Below, piece after piece: positions 9,390 through 59,339 of a stretch of 64,000 nt of DNA. The translations under genes were made by a program, and so were the position numbers. Numbering within the stretch: the first letter of the stretch is position 1; the number at the start of each line of letters is the position of its first letter. Under the pieces are notes generated by a model, which did not search any database, was not told the DNA's origin, and was given only the letters and a program-made list of their open reading frames with translations. The stretch lies in NCBI RefSeq assembly GCF_988243305.1, contig NZ_OZ547136.1; one strand, written 5' to 3'.

Positions 9390-9924
9390 GGCCGCAGGCT
9401 GTTACTCCTGCGGCCGGTTTCGGGCGCATATTGCCATCACGGCAGCCTGACGCCCGTTTTCACCTTACTTCCGGTTACGCCACCAGCTGACAATCGCTGC
9501 GGTAATAATTCCCGCCAGGATCGGTGCTGCCAGGTCGTGCCAGAAAGTCATGGCAAACTGCGCGAGCGTCATATAGCCGCCTTGTTGTAATGACAACATT
9601 TTGCGGCTATTCTTGAATTGTTCTGGTTCAAGATTAGCCCCCGTTCTGTTGTCAGGTTATACCTCTCAACGTGCGGGGGTTTTCTCTTTCCAGCAACCAA
9701 TGCCACCAGGGATAGAGCCCCCGCAACATTGCGCCTCACCGGATAACGCCGGCTTGGTGTGGATACTACGACTCAATTAATCTTCACTTCATCCCTGAAA
9801 TGTATGCAATGAAGAGTGCATTCCGGTTTTTCAACAGCTGTTACAGTCGTTTCATGAGTGCTCTGGATGATGCTTCCAGCTCGGGTTGCCAATATTTACT
9901 TGTGGAAGAGATAAAGACAAAAAA
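9390..9924. repeat. long direct repeat (LDR) unit 1, about 535 bp, carrying an ldr toxin gene and expected Rdl antisense sRNA region
   Basis: 9390-9924 is repeated almost identically at 9925 to about 10400; corresponds to the LDR elements between kdsA and chaA in E. coli. Confidence 0.85.
9465..9572 (-). CDS. ldr: type I toxin-antitoxin small toxic peptide Ldr (35 aa)
   Basis: Minus-strand ORF MTLAQFAMTFWHDLAAPILAGIITAAIVSWWRNRK; below the 60-aa track cutoff; matches the Ldr toxin family. Confidence 0.8.
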   Translation of the reverse strand: MTLAQFAMTFWHDLAAPILAGIITAAIVSWWRNRK

Positions 9925-10400
9925 GGCCGCAGGCTGTTACCCCTGCGGCCGGTTTCGGGCGCATATTGCCATCACGGCAGCCTGACGCCCGTTTTCACCT
10001 TACTTCCGGTTACGCCACCAGCTGACAATCGCTGCGGTAATAATTCCCGCCAGGATCGGTGCTGCCAGGTCGTGCCAGAAAATCATGGCAAACTGCGCGA
10101 GCGTCATATAGCCGCCTTGTTGTAATGACAACATTTTGCGGCTATTCTTGAATTGTTGATGGTTCAAGATTAGCCCCCGTTCTGTTGTCAGGTTTTACCT
10201 CTCAACGTGCGGGGGTTTTCTCTTTCCAGCAACCAATGCCACCAGGGATAAAGCCCCCGCAACATTGCGCCTCACCGGATAACGCCGGCTTGGTGTGGAT
10301 ACTACGTCTCAATTCATCTTCACTTCATCCCTGAAATGTTTGCAATAAAGAGTACATTCCGGCTTTTCAACAGCTGTTGCAGTGGTTTCGTGCAGGTTCT
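9925..10400. repeat. long direct repeat (LDR) unit 2
   Basis: Second tandem copy; homology to unit 1 decays near 10400 before chaA. Confidence 0.8.
10000..10107 (-). CDS. ldr: type I toxin-antitoxin small toxic peptide Ldr (35 aa), second copy
   Basis: Minus-strand ORF MTLAQFAMIFWHDLAAPILAGIITAAIVSWWRNRK; one substitution (I vs T at residue 9) relative to copy 1. Confidence 0.8.
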   Translation of the reverse strand: MTLAQFAMIFWHDLAAPILAGIITAAIVSWWRNRK

Positions 10401-26350: not shown

Positions 26351-27063
26351 TGATGGTGGTGGGGGAAGGATTACTCAGCGCTGCGCGCTTCACCCTTCGG
26401 GTCGTTGCCTGCGGCAACGCTTTCTCGCTGGCGCTCGAGTCGCACCTTGGTCGAAGCTTCTCATCCTTCCCCGCATGGGCAGAATATTTAATTGCGGATT
26501 CGTTTGAGAGTTCACGGACTTTTGAAAAGTGATGGTGGTGGGAGAAGGATTACTCAGCGCTGCGCGCTTCGCCCTTCGGGTCGTTGCCTGCGGCAACGCT
26601 CTCTCGCTGGCGCTCAAGTCGAACCTTGGTTGAAGCTTCTCATCCTTCCCCGCATGGGCAGAATATTTGATTGCGGATTCGTTTGAGAATTCCGGGGCTT
26701 TTGAAAGTTATGGTGGTGGGGGAAGGATTACTCAGCGCTGCGCGCTTCGCCCTTCGGGTCGTTGCCTGCGGCCACGCTCTCTCGCTGGCGCTCGAGTCGA
26801 ACCTTGGTCGAAGCTTCTCATCCTTCCCCGCATGGGCAGAATATTTAATCGCGGATTCGTTTGAGAGTTCACGGACTTTTGAAAGTGATGGTGGTAGGGG
26901 AAGGATTACTCAGCGCTGCGCGCTTCGCCCTTCGGGTCGTTGCCTGCGGCAACGCTCTCTCGCTGGCGCTCGAGTCGAACCTTGGTCGAAGCTTCTCATC
27001 CTTCCCCGCTTGGGCAGAATATTTAATTACGGATTCGTTTGAGAGTTCAGGGACTTTTGAAAG
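26351..27063 (-). repeat. rttR: about 178-bp tandem repeat array downstream of the tyrT-tyrV tRNA genes (rtT RNA / tpr region)
   Basis: Four tandem copies beginning near 26351, 26529, 26709 and 26886, each opening with TGGTGGTGGGGGAAGGATT that mimics the tRNA-Tyr 3' end; known architecture of the tyrT operon. Confidence 0.85.
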
Positions 27064-27066
27064 TGA

Positions 27067-27151
<85 letters not shown>

Positions 27152-27185
27152 AGGGGTAATTCAAATTTTGAGGTAATGCTTGAGA

Positions 27186-27270
<85 letters not shown>

Positions 27271-51470: not shown

Positions 51471-52109
51471 ATGAAAAAGTTAACAGTGGCGGCTTTGGCA
51501 GTAACAACTCTTCTCTCTGGCAGTGCCTTTGCGCATGAAGCAGGCGAATTTTTTATGCGTGCAGGTTCTGCAACCGTACGTCCAACAGAAGGTGCTGGTG
51601 GTACGTTAGGAAGTCTGGGTGGATTCAGCGTGACCAATAACACGCAACTGGGCCTGACGTTTACTTATATGGCAACCGATAACATTGGTGTGGAATTGCT
51701 GGCAGCGACGCCGTTCCGCCATAAAATCGGCACCCGAGCGACCGGCGATATTGCAACCGTTCATCATCTGCCGCCAACACTGATGGCGCAGTGGTATTTT
51801 GGTGATGCCAGCAGCAAATTCCGTCCTTACGTTGGGGCAGGTATTAACTACACCACCTTCTTTGATAATGGATTTAACGATCATGGCAAAGAGGCGGGGC
51901 TTTCCGATCTCAGTCTGAAAGACTCCTGGGGAGCTGCCGGGCAGGTGGGGGTTGATTATCTGATTAACCGTGACTGGTTGGTTAACATGTCAGTGTGGTA
52001 CATGGATATCGATACCACGGCTAAGTACAAATCTGGTGTTACTACCGTAAAAGACTCGGTACGACTGGATCCGTGGGTGTTTATGTTCTCCGCAGGATAT
52101 CGTTTTTAA
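51471..52109 (+). CDS. ompW: outer membrane protein W
   Basis: 212-aa ORF with signal peptide MKKLTVAALAVTTLLSGSAFA and C-terminal aromatic residue (YRF) typical of beta-barrel OMPs. Confidence 0.96.
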   Translation: MKKLTVAALAVTTLLSGSAFAHEAGEFFMRAGSATVRPTEGAGGTLGSLGGFSVTNNTQLGLTFTYMATDNIGVELLAATPFRHKIGTRATGDIATVHHLPPTLMAQWYFGDASSKFRPYVGAGINYTTFFDNGFNDHGKEAGLSDLSLKDSWGAAGQVGVDYLINRDWLVNMSVWYMDIDTTAKYKSGVTTVKDSVRLDPWVFMFSAGYRF

Positions 52110-52154: not shown

Positions 52155-53285
52155 TCAAATGACCAGTTTTTTCCATTCCTTACCGCGTGCGTCGTTGTAA
52201 ATATCGGTCATTTTTTGATTCGAATGGCCTAGCAAAATTTTGGTATCAACCCCCTGCTCTCTGAACAATCGCTCTGATAAAGATCTCTGCTCATGGAAAG
52301 AGGGAGGGGTGCCATTAGCACGCCAGTTGTAATCCACAGAATCCCGGGCTTTTTTAAATGCAACGGTTAATGTTGCTGGCTTAACCATCCCGCCGCGCTT
52401 AGCTGTCCCTTTCGCGTGATGGTGGTGCAATAGCCACGGACTAAGAACGCAATCGCGGCAGGATGACACCACATCATCCAGGGTGAGATTTAATTTATCG
52501 CAACGCAGAGCCAGAGGGATGGCAATCCGGGTTCCTGTTTTTTGCTGTTCGACATGAAGATAACCATCCCGGATATCCGAAAATTGCATTTTGCAAATAT
52601 CTGAAAGGCGCTGGCCTGTCATCAGTGCCAGCAGCATACCGCGCTGTAAAAAGTAACCATCCTTTTCCGCTGCGTTATAAATCATCATCCACTCATCAAA
52701 AGTCAGTCGCTGTCTTGATATCCGCACCTGCGGTTTTTTTGCCGATTCTGCAGGGTTAAAGCCTGGCGGGACATCGCCCGTTTGCTGAGCTTCCCGGAAA
52801 ACATCGATCAGTACTTTCCTGAAAATTTGTCCCATTCTGTTATGTCCTCTGGCCTTGTACTCTTCCAGTACTGATACCACATCTTTTACGGTTATGGCAT
52901 CTAACGGTCTGGTGCCAAAACGTTCATCAAATACCCTGAGAGGGGCCGCTTTCTGTTTCAGCGTGTTGAGTTTGATCTCGCCGTTTTCATATCTTTCCTG
53001 TTGAATTTTTCTGTAATTATTCAGAAAAATGGTAACGGTTGATGAACCGCCGGTATCACTAATAATTTTCTCCTGCAGACTGAGCATTTGTTCCATTTGC
53101 TGCCGGGCAAGACGGCTGTTCGCTTCTGCTGCAATAGTTTCTGCCAGTTTCTGGTCAATACTGCCGAGACCGTGATTTTTGCCTGTTATGGGATGCCTGT
53201 AACGCCAGTAAACTTTGTTATTTCTTTTGTCAAAATACGGAGATAATCCCGGAACATCGGTTTTATATTTTCGCGGGCGCGCCAT
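52155..53285 (-). CDS. int: phage tyrosine integrase (lambda Int family)
   Basis: 376-aa ORF; C-terminal catalytic region with LGHSNQKMTDIYNDARG (Tyr nucleophile context); 3' end overlaps the hairpin adjacent to ompW. Confidence 0.9.
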   Translation of the reverse strand: MARPRKYKTDVPGLSPYFDKRNNKVYWRYRHPITGKNHGLGSIDQKLAETIAAEANSRLARQQMEQMLSLQEKIISDTGGSSTVTIFLNNYRKIQQERYENGEIKLNTLKQKAAPLRVFDERFGTRPLDAITVKDVVSVLEEYKARGHNRMGQIFRKVLIDVFREAQQTGDVPPGFNPAESAKKPQVRISRQRLTFDEWMMIYNAAEKDGYFLQRGMLLALMTGQRLSDICKMQFSDIRDGYLHVEQQKTGTRIAIPLALRCDKLNLTLDDVVSSCRDCVLSPWLLHHHHAKGTAKRGGMVKPATLTVAFKKARDSVDYNWRANGTPPSFHEQRSLSERLFREQGVDTKILLGHSNQKMTDIYNDARGKEWKKLVI

Positions 53286-56585: not shown

Positions 56586-56638
56586 GGGCGGCAGAGCAGT
56601 CACGGAGTAAAACTGATACCGCCAAACGTCACCAGAAA
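56586..56638 (-). ncRNA. dicF: DicF small regulatory RNA (ftsZ-targeting)
   Basis: Reverse complement reads TTTCTGGTGACGTTTGGCGGTATCAGTTTTACTCCGTGACTGCTCTGCCGCCC followed by a T-run; matches the 53-nt DicF sequence as recalled, with its 3' terminator hairpin. Confidence 0.75.
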
Positions 56639-56977: not shown

Positions 56978-57172
56978 ATGTCAGAGCAGGAGTTAAAACT
57001 TGGTGCATGTTATTGTGTTCTCAAGGAGCTGGTACACATGCTTCCATCTACTCAGTATCAACAGTTAGTTGGCAATTTAAATCAGCGAATCGAAGCTATG
57101 TTAAAATCTGATGGTTTTAATAACGTAGAAACGCTGATGCTAAAAAGATATCTTGATGGATTAATCAGATAA
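56978..57172 (+). CDS. hypothetical small protein (64 aa) encoded convergently within the early-left region
   Basis: ATG at 56978 preceded by a strong SD (TGGAGGATAAAATG); MSEQELKLGACYCVLKELVHMLPSTQYQQLVGNLNQRIEAMLK...; inside track ORF 56906-57172; no competing minus-strand ORF over 25 aa in this interval. Confidence 0.5.
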   Translation: MSEQELKLGACYCVLKELVHMLPSTQYQQLVGNLNQRIEAMLKSDGFNNVETLMLKRYLDGLIR

Positions 57173-57499
57173 CATTTTTTTACGGCGTTCATATTCGTTA
57201 ATATTTATGAAGCCTGTTGCCAGAAGCAGTTCGTTAATTTCATGGTTGTTTGGCTGTTTCTGGCTCTTTGAGCTGGGATCTTCCACTTCTTTTTCTGCAA
57301 ATTGTTTTGCTGTATCCTCTGTGCCATGGATATTTAAAGCTGTATCTGAAAACAGCCCAGTAAACGCATCGCGCACATTACGAGCCATATTATCAGTGTC
57401 TTTTTTTGTTACCGATTCCAATTCAAGTTCGTTCAGACGATGACGAAGTGTGTGTGCTGCAATCTCCTGGATTGAAGGAGGTAAATCTTTAAATTCCAT
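57161..57499 (-). CDS. hypothetical early-left protein (112 aa)
   Basis: Track ORF 57161-57511; start placed at second ATG 57499 (MEFKDLPPSIQEIAAHTL...) which has a GAGG SD; 3' end overlaps the convergent plus-strand ORF by 12 nt. Confidence 0.55.
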   Translation of the reverse strand: MEFKDLPPSIQEIAAHTLRHRLNELELESVTKKDTDNMARNVRDAFTGLFSDTALNIHGTEDTAKQFAEKEVEDPSSKSQKQPNNHEINELLLATGFININEYERRKKMLSD

Positions 57500-57510
57500 C
57501 GTCAACCTCA

Positions 57511-57744
57511 TCAGTCAGTGTTTCTTGCTAACCAGCGATGCGCGCCAGCTGCGGTTTTAAACGTTTTACTTTTGGTATACGTCATCGCGGTGAAGGTGCC
57601 GTCCTGGTTAGGGAACACACCGCATACCAGAGATTCGTTGTTGCCAAGATCGATAGTATCCATGCTGACCTCATTTCCCCTTAACGCCGGGGTAGCGGAA
57701 CAAAAACCTGCTGCATAGTTATTAAAGTTGAACCCTGCCGTCAT
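57511..57744 (-). CDS. hypothetical early-left small protein (possibly YdfB-like); start ambiguous (57744 or internal ATG 57663)
   Basis: Track ORF of 77 aa; both ATG 57744 and ATG 57663 (MDTIDLGNNESLVCGVFPNQDGTF...) have GAGG SD sequences upstream; first gene downstream of the OL-type operator. Confidence 0.55.
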   Translation of the reverse strand: MTAGFNFNNYAAGFCSATPALRGNEVSMDTIDLGNNESLVCGVFPNQDGTFTAMTYTKSKTFKTAAGAHRWLARNTD

Positions 57745-57846
57745 GTTCTTACGCCTCGGGCTGGCTACTTACCCCCTGACCACTGCTTGGTAACTCGAAG
57801 TATTGCCCGGCGTTCTGTGGGGCGGGGTGGGTTGGTATGTTGTTAA

Positions 57847-57860
57847 GGTAACAAGAGTTA
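57847..57860. promoter_or_regulatory. candidate left operator (OL) for the prophage repressor
   Basis: 14-bp palindrome GTAACAAGAGTTAC (GTAAC-N4-GTTAC), same motif as the two sites between the cI-like and cro-like genes. Confidence 0.55.
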
Positions 57861-57903
57861 CCTTTCGAGTCAATACAATGTTGCAAAAGGTACATTCGAG
57901 GGC

Positions 57904-57930
57904 ATAAAAAACCCGCAATGAATGCGGGTT
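57904..57930 (-). terminator. rho-independent terminator after the repressor gene
   Basis: Minus-strand hairpin ACCCGCATTCATTGCGGGT followed by a T-run immediately after the cI-like stop. Confidence 0.7.
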
Positions 57931-57935
57931 CTGAC

Positions 57936-58610
57936 TCAGTCTAAGTATTGATGTATTTGTGAAACTTTACCTTTAATGGTGTAACCACCATTAAGTTCGA
58001 TGGGTTTGTAAAGCGGATTCAGTGACAACAGATAGATGTTTGGTCCGTCAATCGCAACTTTTTTTAGTGTTACGTTTGGCGTTCCTTCCAATTGGATTAA
58101 GATTATTTTTCCCACCAGTTCTCTAATGTTACTTGAGCATGGTGTGATCAGCACGGTAGATCCGTCGGGGATGGTTGGGAGGCCGTTAGAGTTTGTCATC
58201 GCATCTCCCTCAACATGCAATAAAAAAGAGTTTTCAGCGGTTTTTGTCATGACATCAACCCAATTCTTAATACCAGGAATCTCGGTTACTGGACAACTCA
58301 TATCCCAATAACCAGCCTGTTCCCACGTTAAAACGGGCAACCGGGCGATGTTGTCACTAATGTAAGGGTACTGATTCAGACGCAGATCATCGGCTTTATC
58401 GTGACCGTCCTTTCCATAAAGAATCCATTCAGGAGATTTGGAAAGCAATTTTGACAGTAGATACAAATTCTCACCGTCAGGTTTTGAAGAGCCATTTTCC
58501 CATTTTGTTACGGATACACGAGATATGCCGATTGCTTTCGCAACCTGCTGTTGGGTTAATCCAACGTCTTTTCGACGATTCCGAATACGTTCGCTGATAG
58601 TGTTTTTCAT
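57936..58610 (-). CDS. prophage CI-like repressor (XRE HTH N-terminal domain plus S24/LexA-like autopeptidase C-terminal domain)
   Basis: Track ORF 57936-58709; start placed at ATG 58610 (MKNTISERIRNRRKDVGLTQQQVAKAIGISRVSVTKWENG...) by close resemblance to the P22 C2 N-terminus; C-terminal Ser/Lys dyad context (GDAM...KK). Confidence 0.85.
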   Translation of the reverse strand: MKNTISERIRNRRKDVGLTQQQVAKAIGISRVSVTKWENGSSKPDGENLYLLSKLLSKSPEWILYGKDGHDKADDLRLNQYPYISDNIARLPVLTWEQAGYWDMSCPVTEIPGIKNWVDVMTKTAENSFLLHVEGDAMTNSNGLPTIPDGSTVLITPCSSNIRELVGKIILIQLEGTPNVTLKKVAIDGPNIYLLSLNPLYKPIELNGGYTIKGKVSQIHQYLD

Positions 58611-58624
58611 GTAACCAATGTTAC
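58611..58624. promoter_or_regulatory. candidate right operator site (PRM-proximal)
   Basis: Palindrome GTAACCAATGTTAC immediately upstream of the repressor start. Confidence 0.55.
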
Positions 58625-58658
58625 TACCAAGTGATGTTGCTATGGTTGACATTGTTAT

Positions 58659-58672
58659 GTAACTATTGTTAC
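58659..58672. promoter_or_regulatory. candidate right operator site (PR-proximal)
   Basis: Palindrome GTAACTATTGTTAC adjacent to a TTGACA hexamer (58646-58651) upstream of the cro-like gene. Confidence 0.55.
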
Positions 58673-58701
58673 CCTTCTGCTCGAAATAACAGGAGAGTTT
58701 T

Positions 58702-58917
58702 ATGTTCAAAGATGATGTTCTGCGCTATTTCAAAAAAAAGCGACTAGTAGCTGAGGCTCTTGGAATTTCACATGTGGCTGTTGTGCGGTGGAAAGCAGTT
58801 ATTCCCAAACTTCGCGCAATGGAACTGGATGAAATTACTAACGGTGAATTGAAATACAACCCAGAACTTTACAAGAAGCAGGATAGCACCTCAAACGAAG
58901 GAAAGAATGATTCATGA
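58702..58917 (+). CDS. Cro-like/YdaS-family HTH DNA-binding protein
   Basis: 71-aa ORF with SD AGGAGAG; HTH segment LVAEALGISHVAVVRW; divergent from the repressor gene. Confidence 0.7.
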   Translation: MFKDDVLRYFKKKRLVAEALGISHVAVVRWKAVIPKLRAMELDEITNGELKYNPELYKKQDSTSNEGKNDS

Positions 58918-59339
58918 AAATCAAGCATGAACACATCCGCATGGCGATGAATGTCTGGGCGCATCCGGACGGCGAAAAAGTGCCGGCTGCGAAAATTACC
59001 AAAGCGTATTTCGAGCTGGGAATGACGTTCCCGGAACTGTATGACGACAGCCATCCGGAAGCCCTGGCCCGTAATACCCAGAAAATTTTCCGTTGGCTGG
59101 ATAAAGACACCCCTGATGCTGTTGAAAAAATGCAGGCTCTGTTACCGGCGATCGAAAAGGCGATGCCGCCTTTGCTGGTGGCCCGTATGCGCAGCCACAG
59201 TTCTGAATATTACCGTGAGATCGTCGAACGGAGGGATCGGCTGGTGAAGGATGTCGATGATTTTGTTGCGTCAGCGGTTGTTTTGTATGACCAGATGAAT
59301 CGCGGCGGCCCGGCAGGGAATGCTGTGGTGATGCACTAA
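58914..59339 (+). CDS. CII-like/YdaT-family prophage regulator
   Basis: 141-aa ORF overlapping the cro-like stop; size and position match the YdaT family that follows ydaS in Rac-type prophages. Confidence 0.55.
   Translation: MKIKHEHIRMAMNVWAHPDGEKVPAAKITKAYFELGMTFPELYDDSHPEALARNTQKIFRWLDKDTPDAVEKMQALLPAIEKAMPPLLVARMRSHSSEYYREIVERRDRLVKDVDDFVASAVVLYDQMNRGGPAGNAVVMH

Follow-up and report, generated by a model that had tools for sequence, protein, structure and literature searches.

Predicted operators of a P22/lambda-type prophage immunity switch common in Escherichia coli

Results

A divergent repressor and cro pair occupies the locus. The window analyzed here is a 64,000-nucleotide (64-kb) stretch of contig NZ_OZ547136.1 from RefSeq assembly GCF_988243305.1. 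On its minus strand it encodes a cI-type repressor of 224 amino acids (57936 to 58610) with an N-terminal HTH_3 domain (Pfam, 3.5e-17), a C-terminal Peptidase_S24 domain (9.5e-17) and the recognition helix SRVSVTKWE. The nearest solved structure is full-length lambda cI (3bdn, E = 4e-14), followed by the N-terminal domain of P22 c2, with which residues 5-66 align (1adr, 2r1j and 3jxb; phmmer E = 1.4e-12). An alanine aligns with lambda Ser149 (GDAM vs GNSM), so that the catalytic serine is replaced, and GDAM is present in all 20 of the E. coli-type copies examined. The Ala-Gly (QAG) and the lysine (TLKKV) are retained, but without the serine nucleophile the protein does not have the full set of residues of a self-cleaving LexA/S24 repressor. 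The plus strand carries cro (58702 to 58917), which encodes a 71-amino acid protein of the P22_Cro family (Pfam E = 2.9e-16), is preceded by an AGGAG Shine-Dalgarno sequence (58691-58695), and diverges from the repressor gene across a 91-bp gap, as in lambdoid phages. The second gene of the predicted PR operon (58914 to 59339, plus strand) encodes a YdaT-family protein (Pfam YdaT_toxin). In prophage CP-933P, YdaT is a functional analogue of lambda CII (PMC8630535, PMC9986795).

Three exact dyads cluster around the repressor gene. An exact search of both strands for GTAACNNNNGTTAC, the GTAAC-N4-GTTAC dyad, gave exactly three matches in the window, at 57848-57861 (GTAACAAGAGTTAC), 58611-58624 (GTAACCAATGTTAC) and 58659-58672 (GTAACTATTGTTAC). 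All fall within 825 bp around the repressor gene and share a 5-4-5 layout, with the centers TATT, CAAT and AAGA. Dinucleotide-preserving shuffles of the window held a mean of 0.04 such dyads, and 0 of 100 reached three. Scored with a weight matrix trained solely on sites from other loci, the three dyads reached 19.2-21.2 bits, while the next best 14-mer in the window reached 12.0. The sequence-only reading of this region had proposed three copies of a shared dyad, to be checked by counting the motif elsewhere in the window; the three copies are there and no others were found. It had located the two right-hand sites exactly, but its left-hand site, given as 57847-57860, was off by 1 bp. Its placement also held, as two sites lie between the divergent repressor and cro genes, one of them with a TTGACA (58646-58651) 7 bp to its left, and the third lies left of the repressor gene, past the cI terminator.

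The gap between cI and cro contains two strong sites and two putative promoters. The cI-proximal dyad at 58611-58624, the positional equivalent of OR3, was recovered both as an exact dyad and with the weight matrix, and adjoins the CAT at 58608-58610 that is the minus-strand ATG of the repressor gene. The contact with the repressor start described in the sequence-only reading thus holds for the ATG at 58610, though not for the RefSeq start at 58652. The site and its abutting CAT are kept at related loci L002, L004, L006 and L008 and in Pectobacterium phage ZF40, Escherichia phage vB_EcoS-733R5 and Pantoea phage AH07. Within the window's own type it is intact in 10 of 11 haplotypes, with one natural variant, GTAAT, in L100. 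This haplotype comparison is informative just for OR3 and OL2, because the copies were found by means of OR1, OL1 and the -35 box and the comparison is biased for these elements.

Embedded in OR3 is a putative PRM -10 (TAACAT, 58618-58623, minus strand), read from the sequence and 7 nt before the ATG. A TAnnnT hexamer occupies this position in every relative, whatever its operator type, and no Shine-Dalgarno sequence was found upstream of the repressor ATG. So short a distance suggests that the repressor mRNA is leaderless or nearly so; this placement of the PRM -10 and the leaderless cI transcript are the least certain part of the map.

The putative -35 box of PR (TTGACA, 58646-58651, plus strand) is invariant in L002, L004, L006, L007 and L008, where its flanks have diverged. 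Beyond it lies the PR-proximal dyad at 58659-58672, the OR1 equivalent, which is the best site in the window (21.2 bits). The candidate -10 (TACCCT, 58670-58675, plus strand) would follow an 18-bp spacer and take its preceding TGn from the operator arm; relatives have TACCTT or TACATT there. A consensus promoter scan called no sigma-70 promoter in 57700-58800. The hexamers proposed for the PR and PL -10 match consensus at 3 of 6 positions, and both promoters would depend on the extended -10 TGn and a consensus -35. The conserved TTGACA and TGnTACCYT elements, which the scan does not call, overlap OR1, and OL1 lies in the same register.

A middle site is hard to recognize in the window. The position equivalent to OR2 (GTTGCTATGGTTGA, 58636-58649) overlaps the PR -35 and is degenerate, matching 6 of 10 arm positions. 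It scores -2.3 bits (rank about 830), which is like background, so the sequence alone gives no support for a middle site here. In 733R5, AH07, ZF40 and mEp390, by contrast, a middle site is clearly recognizable 25 bp from OR3. We had also considered 58627-58640, where a 32-bp spacing would echo that of OL1 and OL2, but dropped it for the homologous position; neither scores above background. If PRM transcription starts at the ATG, the OR2 position is centered near -32, whereas the activation position in lambda is -42, and lambda-style positive autoregulation is therefore not simply to be assumed.

The leftward side has one strong site with promoter-like surroundings. OL1 (57848-57861) is an exact dyad of 19.3 bits that reads GTAACTCTTGTTAC on the minus strand and in that orientation differs from OR1 in one central N4 base and nothing else. 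It lies 75 bp past the repressor stop (57936) and beyond an intrinsic terminator of the cI transcript (57906-57931, minus strand) that stands between cI and OL. The terminator consists of a 9-bp G+C-rich stem, a 5-nt loop and a U run. A simple terminator scan missed it, but RNA folding confirmed it (-16 kcal/mol, z = -2.9), and 0 of 200 shuffles folded as well. L002, L004 and L008 have OL1 in the same position, as do, among the matches listed, at least 15 IMG/VR contigs. A putative PL -10 (TACCTT, 57846-57851, minus strand) would draw its extended -10 TGn from the right arm of the operator in a PR-like geometry, and has an equivalent hexamer in L002, L004 and L008; because it matches just 3 of 6 consensus positions, it goes uncalled in the consensus scan. 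The putative -35 lies 17 bp away (TTGACT, 57869-57874, minus strand), and this position holds TTGACA and TTGACT in L002 and L004 and TTGATC in L008.

A candidate weak OL2 (GTTGCAAAAGGTAC, 57880-57893) matches 7 of 10 arm positions and scores 6.9 bits (rank 30 of 63,987). Its position is a perfect GTAACTATTGTTAC in L008 and holds recognizable sites in L004, ZF40, 733R5 and AH07, but its arms vary among E. coli haplotypes, which points to weak constraint. DicF is encoded downstream of the proposed PL, on the minus strand. Also on this side, a match to the LexA box CTGT-N8-ACAG lies at 57340-57355, within an ORF of 116 amino acids; it is one of two exact matches in the 64 kb, where 0.58 were expected, and as 13 of 100 shuffles reach two this is not significant.

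Operator sequence and recognition helix change together across relatives. At loci whose repressors are 89, 88, 70 and 66% identical to that of the window, OR1 and the TTGACA are invariant while the DNA in between has diverged, and OR1 is invariant across all loci with repressors 66-100% identical. In the same four lineages the cI-proximal site with its CAT is exact in three and reads GTAATTAAGGTTAC in the Salmonella loci of the 70% lineage, and three of these lineages retain OL1. A recognition helix of the form SRV(S/T)(V/I)TKWE goes with GTAAC-N4-GTTAC at six scored loci (the window, L002, L004, L006, ZF40 and 733R5); inspection shows the same pairing in L008 and AH07. In mEp390, YeP1 and 720R4, N/SRVTVTGWE goes with GTAGG-N4-CCTAC, and in mEp235 the P22-type SNVAISQWE goes with TTAAG-N4-CTTAA. 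The layout is constant across these operator types, with one site at the repressor ATG and a second 47-48 bp upstream. In Cro, the residue before the conserved Trp shifts in parallel, from R to G/E (E in one Cro) to Q, so that over both proteins GTAAC pairs with K/R, GTAGG with G or E, and TTAAG with Q. This covariation is the strongest computational evidence available that the repressor and Cro read these sites, and would support such a role for both.

We give little probability to the idea that the operators are real but are read by the repressor only, by Cro only, or by a third protein such as the YdaT-family product or a host factor. It draws on CP-933P, where the exact target sequences of PaaR2 and YdaS escaped footprinting (PMC8630535). 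The helices of the repressor and of Cro both covary with dyad type, which argues against a single reader and against a third protein, and the site positions match those of P22-type operators, which both proteins bind there. As for YdaT, its motif in CP-933P (TTGATT-N6-AATCAA) differs from the dyad, and its best match in the window is a near-match elsewhere, at the cro/ydaT junction (58907-58924).

The choice of start codon decides whether the 58611 site is intergenic. A longer ORF of 238 amino acids, starting at 58652, is the choice of RefSeq/PGAP and of the gene callers used for several assemblies, and in all close relatives the reading frame stays open across its 14 extra codons. Were that protein real, the 58611 dyad would be intragenic, leaving one intergenic dyad and no OR-like pair. 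We regard this as highly improbable, since the Met at position 15 of the long form never varies and is where all 215-223-aa homologues begin (alignment A1). In addition, conservation of the extension is limited to the residues encoded by the operator (SNIGY) and by the -35 box (MST). Its start codon shifts in L004 and is a GTG in L008, and initiation at 58652 would fall within the putative PR -35, with 49 bp into which two divergent promoters would have to fit. Judged from alignment A1, the RefSeq start is 14 codons too long and 58610 is the right one.

The chance that the dyads are random palindromes or by-products of coding or promoter sequence, without a binding function, is negligible: the arms are short (5 bp each) and a GTAAC-containing near-match recurs in several loci 98 bp left of OR3 inside the repressor gene, but three dyads stand against 0.04 expected, all are non-coding after the start-codon correction, they persist as islands within diverged DNA, and the same positions switch to GTAGG-N4-CCTAC or TTAAG-N4-CTTAA as the recognition helix changes, so that count, conservation and switching effectively refute this reading already. 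The near-match itself was rejected as an operator, as it is the V-T codons of the recognition helix, an example of how coding can produce such words.

Discussion

The three dyads very probably serve as high-affinity operators for a P22/lambda-type immunity switch that keeps this prophage silent. In this model, dimers of the cI-type repressor, and by inference of Cro, would place one helix-turn-helix on each 5-bp arm and leave the 4-bp A/T-rich center uncontacted. The site at 58659-58672 overlaps the spacer and -10 of the putative PR, and its occupancy would silence an operon made up of cro, the ydaT-like gene and the replication genes. Occupancy of 57848-57861, over the putative PL -10 in the same register, would likewise shut off a leftward operon predicted to comprise the DUF1391 gene, the 116-aa ORF, DicF, an exonuclease and the integrase. 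With the likely PRM -10 inside it, 58611-58624 could mediate negative autoregulation of the repressor at high occupancy and the shut-off of cI by Cro. The degenerate position at 58636-58649 and the weak one at 57880-57893 may be filled cooperatively only, or never.

The genes, the placement of the sites, their conservation and the covariation agree with the OR/OL architecture proposed in the sequence-only reading, though OR has two strong sites and OL a single one, where the classical lambdoid switches have three each. As in lambda, there is a two-domain HTH and S24 repressor, a divergent cro, operators over putative PR, PL and PRM, and a cI start without a Shine-Dalgarno sequence and, as predicted for the window, without a leader. 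The centers of lambda OR1 and OR3 are about 47-48 bp apart, which matches the window. In contrast to lambda, whose operators are 17 bp long, those of the window measure 14 bp (5-4-5), lie nearer the cI ATG by about one helical turn, and accompany a repressor without the catalytic serine.

The likeness to P22 is closer in DNA-binding geometry. The N-terminal domain of the repressor is homologous to that of P22 c2, and cro belongs to the P22_Cro family. The P22 repressor binds symmetric 18-bp sites with four non-contacted central base pairs that are best A/T-rich (PMC4267663); the window has the identical geometry of 5-bp arms around four central A/T-rich base pairs, where non-contact would be expected by analogy. 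In the P22-type immunity region of mEp235, a site likewise lies near the repressor ATG (2 bp away, where that of the window abuts it), another covers PR 48 bp upstream, and a second cluster is located beyond the repressor gene, although the repressors of mEp235 and DE3 (P22 C2-type) are 36% identical to that of the window over the whole protein. The window differs from P22 in its degenerate middle site and in the YdaT-family protein that replaces a lambda/P22-type CII/C1. It also differs in its arms (GTAAC/GTTAC vs TTAAG/CTTAA) and recognition helix (SRVSVTKWE vs SNVAISQWE), and is not of P22 specificity. The shared layout together with the altered dyad and helix suggests P22-like OR/OL regions of a different specificity, from which a different immunity is expected.

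The specificity is not confined to this prophage. The sequence-only reading had seen in the dyad an immunity specificity for this element; it is distinct from that of P22, but ZF40, vB_EcoS-733R5 and AH07 use the same GTAAC-N4-GTTAC, with a variant arm GTACC. These phages also share the CAT-abutting site and the 48-bp span, and their helices are identical to that of the window (SRVSVTKWE in 733R5 and AH07) or similar (SRVTITKWE in ZF40). They differ in that their repressors are 42-43% identical to that of the window, OR2 is recognizable at +25, and OL has two or three sites; in addition, ZF40 and 733R5 keep the catalytic serine (GESM). We found no paper on the cI operators of these three phages, and the ZF40 'operator' papers concern Aca2.

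CP-933P of E. coli O157:H7 is also similar in having a lambdoid immunity region with a YdaT-family protein in place of CII, in which operators are clustered as at OR and OL and the repressor gene is leaderless, as predicted for the window (PMC8630535, PMC9986795). It has PaaR2 followed by a toxin-antitoxin pair instead of an S24-domain cI, YdaS (HTH_Xre) as its cro instead of a P22_Cro family protein, and 18-bp palindromes with the half-site consensus GTTTAGTAA, which is not the operator sequence of the window. We therefore rejected the CP-933P switch as the identity of this element, because its repressor (PaaR2) and operator repeats differ and the YdaT-family gene alone is shared.

This immunity region is common among E. 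coli genomes. Its core is present in 701 of 5,426 complete E. coli genomes (about 13%) and in none of the sequenced phages. The OR1 14-mer occurs in at least 120 stretches of IMG/VR; among the matches listed, this immunity region accounts for 18, another three contain two widely separated dyads, and all remaining ones have a single match, which chance would be expected to produce in a collection of this size. A full-text literature search with six exact operator strings returned no match, and no published description of this immunity type was found. The arrangement is ordinary and adds nothing conceptually to the lambda/P22 paradigm; what was not found described is the binding-site sequence.

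A common resident with an apparently non-cleaving repressor, whose dyad and helix are shared with free-living phages, might be a permanently locked, domesticated switch that controls the leftward DicF/exonuclease operon and maybe cross-represses superinfecting phages whose repressors belong to a formally different lineage. We consider this unlikely, if conceivable. If true, such cross-repression would make the host immune to those phages.

The analysis provides a concrete, checkable operator set for an immunity type found very commonly in E. coli, and the corrected repressor start would fix a systematic mis-annotation. Arm positions 4-5 of the operator vary with the residue that precedes the conserved Trp (K/R, G or Q) in P22 c2-like repressors, a small recognition code that could predict immunity groups from sequence.

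Three dyads surround a cI-type repressor gene

An exact search of both strands of the whole 64-kb window for GTAACNNNNGTTAC returned three occurrences and none besides, confirming the three GTAAC-N4-GTTAC copies described in the sequence-only reading. That reading had correctly placed the cI-proximal dyad (GTAACCAATGTTAC, 58611-58624) and the PR-proximal dyad (GTAACTATTGTTAC, 58659-58672), but its left site (57847-57860) was one base off, and this dyad, OL1 (GTAACAAGAGTTAC), is at 57848-57861. The central four bases are TATT, CAAT and AAGA. Counting the motif across the window, the check proposed in that reading, gave three copies against a mean of 0.04 by shuffling, with three or more in 0 of 100 shuffles. 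When up to two mismatches were allowed, 35 matches were found against 18 expected, spread across the window, with no extra site near the immunity region. A weight matrix trained on other loci's sites only scored the three dyads at 19.2-21.2 bits, and the window's runner-up 14-mer at 12.0 bits.

The left 52 kb of the window is E. coli chromosome. Its two rdlD antitoxin RNAs (9620-10221) and its four tandem RtT repeats, accompanied by two tRNA genes (26354-27270), are commonplace in E. coli and have no bearing on the dyads. Directly beside the host gene ompW (51471-52109) is a lambda-type integrase (52155-53285, minus strand), with which a lambdoid prophage begins. A prophage of strain ML35 has a 99.6% identical immunity region and adjoins potC instead of ompW, and thus the module travels on prophages with differing integration sites.

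The dyads surround a minus-strand ORF that its HTH_3 and Peptidase_S24 domains identify as a cI-type repressor. The plus-strand genes diverging from it are a P22_Cro-family cro (58702-58917), a YdaT-family gene (58914-59339) and an HTH_36 replication-type gene. As had been described, two dyads occupy the gap between the divergent repressor and cro-like genes and the third is left of the repressor. Leftward of the repressor, the minus strand carries a hairpin terminator (57906-57931, -16 kcal/mol, z = -2.9), the third dyad, a DUF1391 gene (57511-57744), a 116-aa ORF (57161-57511), the DicF sRNA (56586-56637, Rfam, 76.7 bits) downstream of the proposed PL, and an 824-aa exonuclease. This all-minus-strand arrangement fits a leftward PL operon. 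The stretch from the DUF1391 gene to DicF is similar to the Qin prophage's dicB operon, except that in this case it lies under an S24-type repressor. The ML35 annotation of the same region includes dicB and ydfD.

The annotated repressor start is probably 14 codons too early

The RefSeq/PGAP repressor (WP_000103686.1) is 238 aa long with a start at 58652, so that the 58611 dyad would fall within the gene, and gene callers in other assemblies likewise choose this long form. In alignment A1 of repressor homologues, however, the long form's Met15 (ATG at 58610) never varies, and all 215-223-aa homologues begin at this residue. The 14-residue extension (58611-58652, minus strand) is conserved only at SNIGY, which is translated operator, and MST, which is the translated TTGACA (-35) box, and the upstream start is shifted in L004 and is GTG in L008, two loci with related repressors. 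Together these observations argue that the gene is 57936-58610 (224 aa) and that the 14 extra codons are operator and promoter DNA rather than coding sequence. With the ATG at 58610, 91 bp separate cI from cro, and the 58611-58624 dyad does abut the start codon, as had been claimed.

Probable operators are conserved in relatives and overlap putative promoters

The gap was aligned across L002, L004, the Salmonella loci L006/L007, and L008, whose repressors are 89, 88, 70 and 66% identical, respectively. GTAACTATTGTTAC and TTGACA were invariant. The cI-proximal dyad and the CAT that it abuts were retained, the dyad being exact in three lineages and reading GTAATTAAGGTTAC in the Salmonella loci, while the spacer DNA between these elements had diverged freely. 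The left dyad was retained in L002, L004 and L008, the last of which has another perfect copy 35 bp further on, where the window has GTTGCAAAAGGTAC (57880-57893).

The TTGACA noted beside one dyad is indeed next to the 58659-58672 site and provides the -35 box (58646-58651) of a putative PR, with an 18-bp spacer and a -10 of TACCCT (58670-58675). Putative PL, on the minus strand, has TTGACT (57874-57869), a 17-bp spacer and TACCTT (57851-57846). In both, the -10 hexamer opens with the operator's last three bases (TAC), and the operator provides a TG one base upstream, as in an extended -10. In transcriptional orientation, the operators at PR and PL (GTAACTATTGTTACC and GTAACTCTTGTTACC) have almost the same sequence. 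A consensus scan called no promoter in the immunity region because both -10 hexamers match at only 3 of 6 positions, so these assignments rest on conservation and symmetry, not score.

A putative PRM -10, TAACAT (TAnnnT; 58623-58618, minus strand), is embedded in the cI-proximal operator, 7 nt upstream of the ATG. Every relative, irrespective of operator type, has a TAnnnT hexamer at the same place and, like the repressor gene here, lacks a Shine-Dalgarno sequence before the repressor ATG, which suggests that the repressor mRNA is leaderless. Leaderless repressor mRNA has been reported for paaR2 (PMC8630535). The lambda cI mRNA is likewise reported to be leaderless.

Recognition helix and dyad change together

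Since the recognition helix is conserved well outside this clade, the comparison was widened to sequenced phages with repressors 36-43% identical. In this clade, ZF40, vB_EcoS-733R5 and AH07, the helix S/T-R-V-S/T-V/I-T-K-W-E is found with GTAAC-N4-GTTAC (one arm at times GTACC), and the Cro residue before the conserved Trp is R. In mEp390, YeP1 and vB_EcoM-720R4, the helix is N/S-R-V-T-V-T-G-W-E, the Cro residue is G or E and the dyad is GTAGG-N4-CCTAC. In mEp235, a P22 c2-type helix, S-N-V-A-I-S-Q-W-E, accompanies a Cro Q and TTAAG-N4-CTTAA. These last four phages share a fixed 0/+25/+48 site layout, and every locus in the comparison has one site that touches the repressor ATG or lies a few bases from it, with another 47-48 bp upstream. 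All the Cro proteins are homologous, and their helix-turn-helix changes in step with the dyad type. Such covariation is the best non-experimental evidence that repressor and Cro both read the dyads, and it places the system in a P22 c2-like repressor-operator family. P22 repressor is documented to bind symmetric 18-bp sites without contacting the four central bp, and it binds most strongly where these are A/T-rich (PMC4267663); the corresponding centres here are TATT, CAAT and AAGA. The proposed OR/OL architecture is thus supported by the gene identities, conserved sites and covariation, with refinements.

Departures from the classical switch

In 733R5, AH07, ZF40 and mEp390, a recognisable middle site lies 25 bp from the cI-proximal site and overlaps the PR -35. 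Its equivalent in the window, OR2 (GTTGCTATGGTTGA, 58636-58649), agrees at 6 of 10 arm positions, and its weight-matrix score is at background level. The candidate second left site (OL2, 57880-57893) ranks 30th of 63,987, but its arms differ between E. coli haplotypes. All sites are about one helical turn nearer the cI ATG than in lambda, so lambda-style PRM activation from OR2 cannot be assumed.

In an alignment of the repressor with lambda cI, Ala takes the place of the catalytic Ser149 (GDAM versus GNSM; about residues 142-145 of the 224-aa protein), while the Ala-Gly cleavage site and catalytic Lys are retained. GDAM occurs in 20 of 20 E. coli-type copies compared and in the relatives P0002 and P0005, and GDSM or GESM in P0003, P0006/L008, P0007, ZF40 and 733R5. 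On the basis of established LexA S119A work, the repressor is predicted to be unable to self-cleave and the prophage not to be inducible by RecA-mediated autocleavage. An alternative SOS input would therefore be of interest. An exact LexA-box core, CTGT-N8-ACAG (CTGTATCTGAAAACAG, 57340-57355), lies within the leftward operon's 116-aa ORF, but the 64 kb contains two such matches with 0.58 expected, which is not significant.

ATGATTCATGAAAATCAA (58907-58924) matches the published CP-933P YdaT site, TTGATT-N6-AATCAA, with one mismatch. The primary YdaT site of CP-933P, O_M, is in the same place, at the junction of the cro stop and ydaT start, and the site here may be a PRE-like control point. It is retained in L002 and L004, but it overlaps coding sequence, so its conservation says little.

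A widespread module with a probable new immunity specificity

The 1.1-kb immunity core is present in 701 of 5,426 complete E. coli genomes (at least 80% coverage), with 98-99.6% identity among the full-coverage matches listed. In IMG/VR, at least 18 of 120 listed stretches contain this immunity region; 17 of these have the 48-bp OR pair, and 15 of the 17 have all three dyads. The locus L100 has a variant cI-proximal site (OR3). No record in the phage collection had a repressor more than 43% identical, and the operator strings were not found in a full-text literature search. CP-933P, the studied YdaT-containing switch, has a different repressor and different operators. The feature is ordinary in kind, a probable new immunity specificity inside a thoroughly understood kind of system. 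For P22 c2-like repressors, the comparison points to a simple helix-to-operator code, in which Gly would go with GTAGG-N4-CCTAC and Gln with TTAAG-N4-CTTAA.
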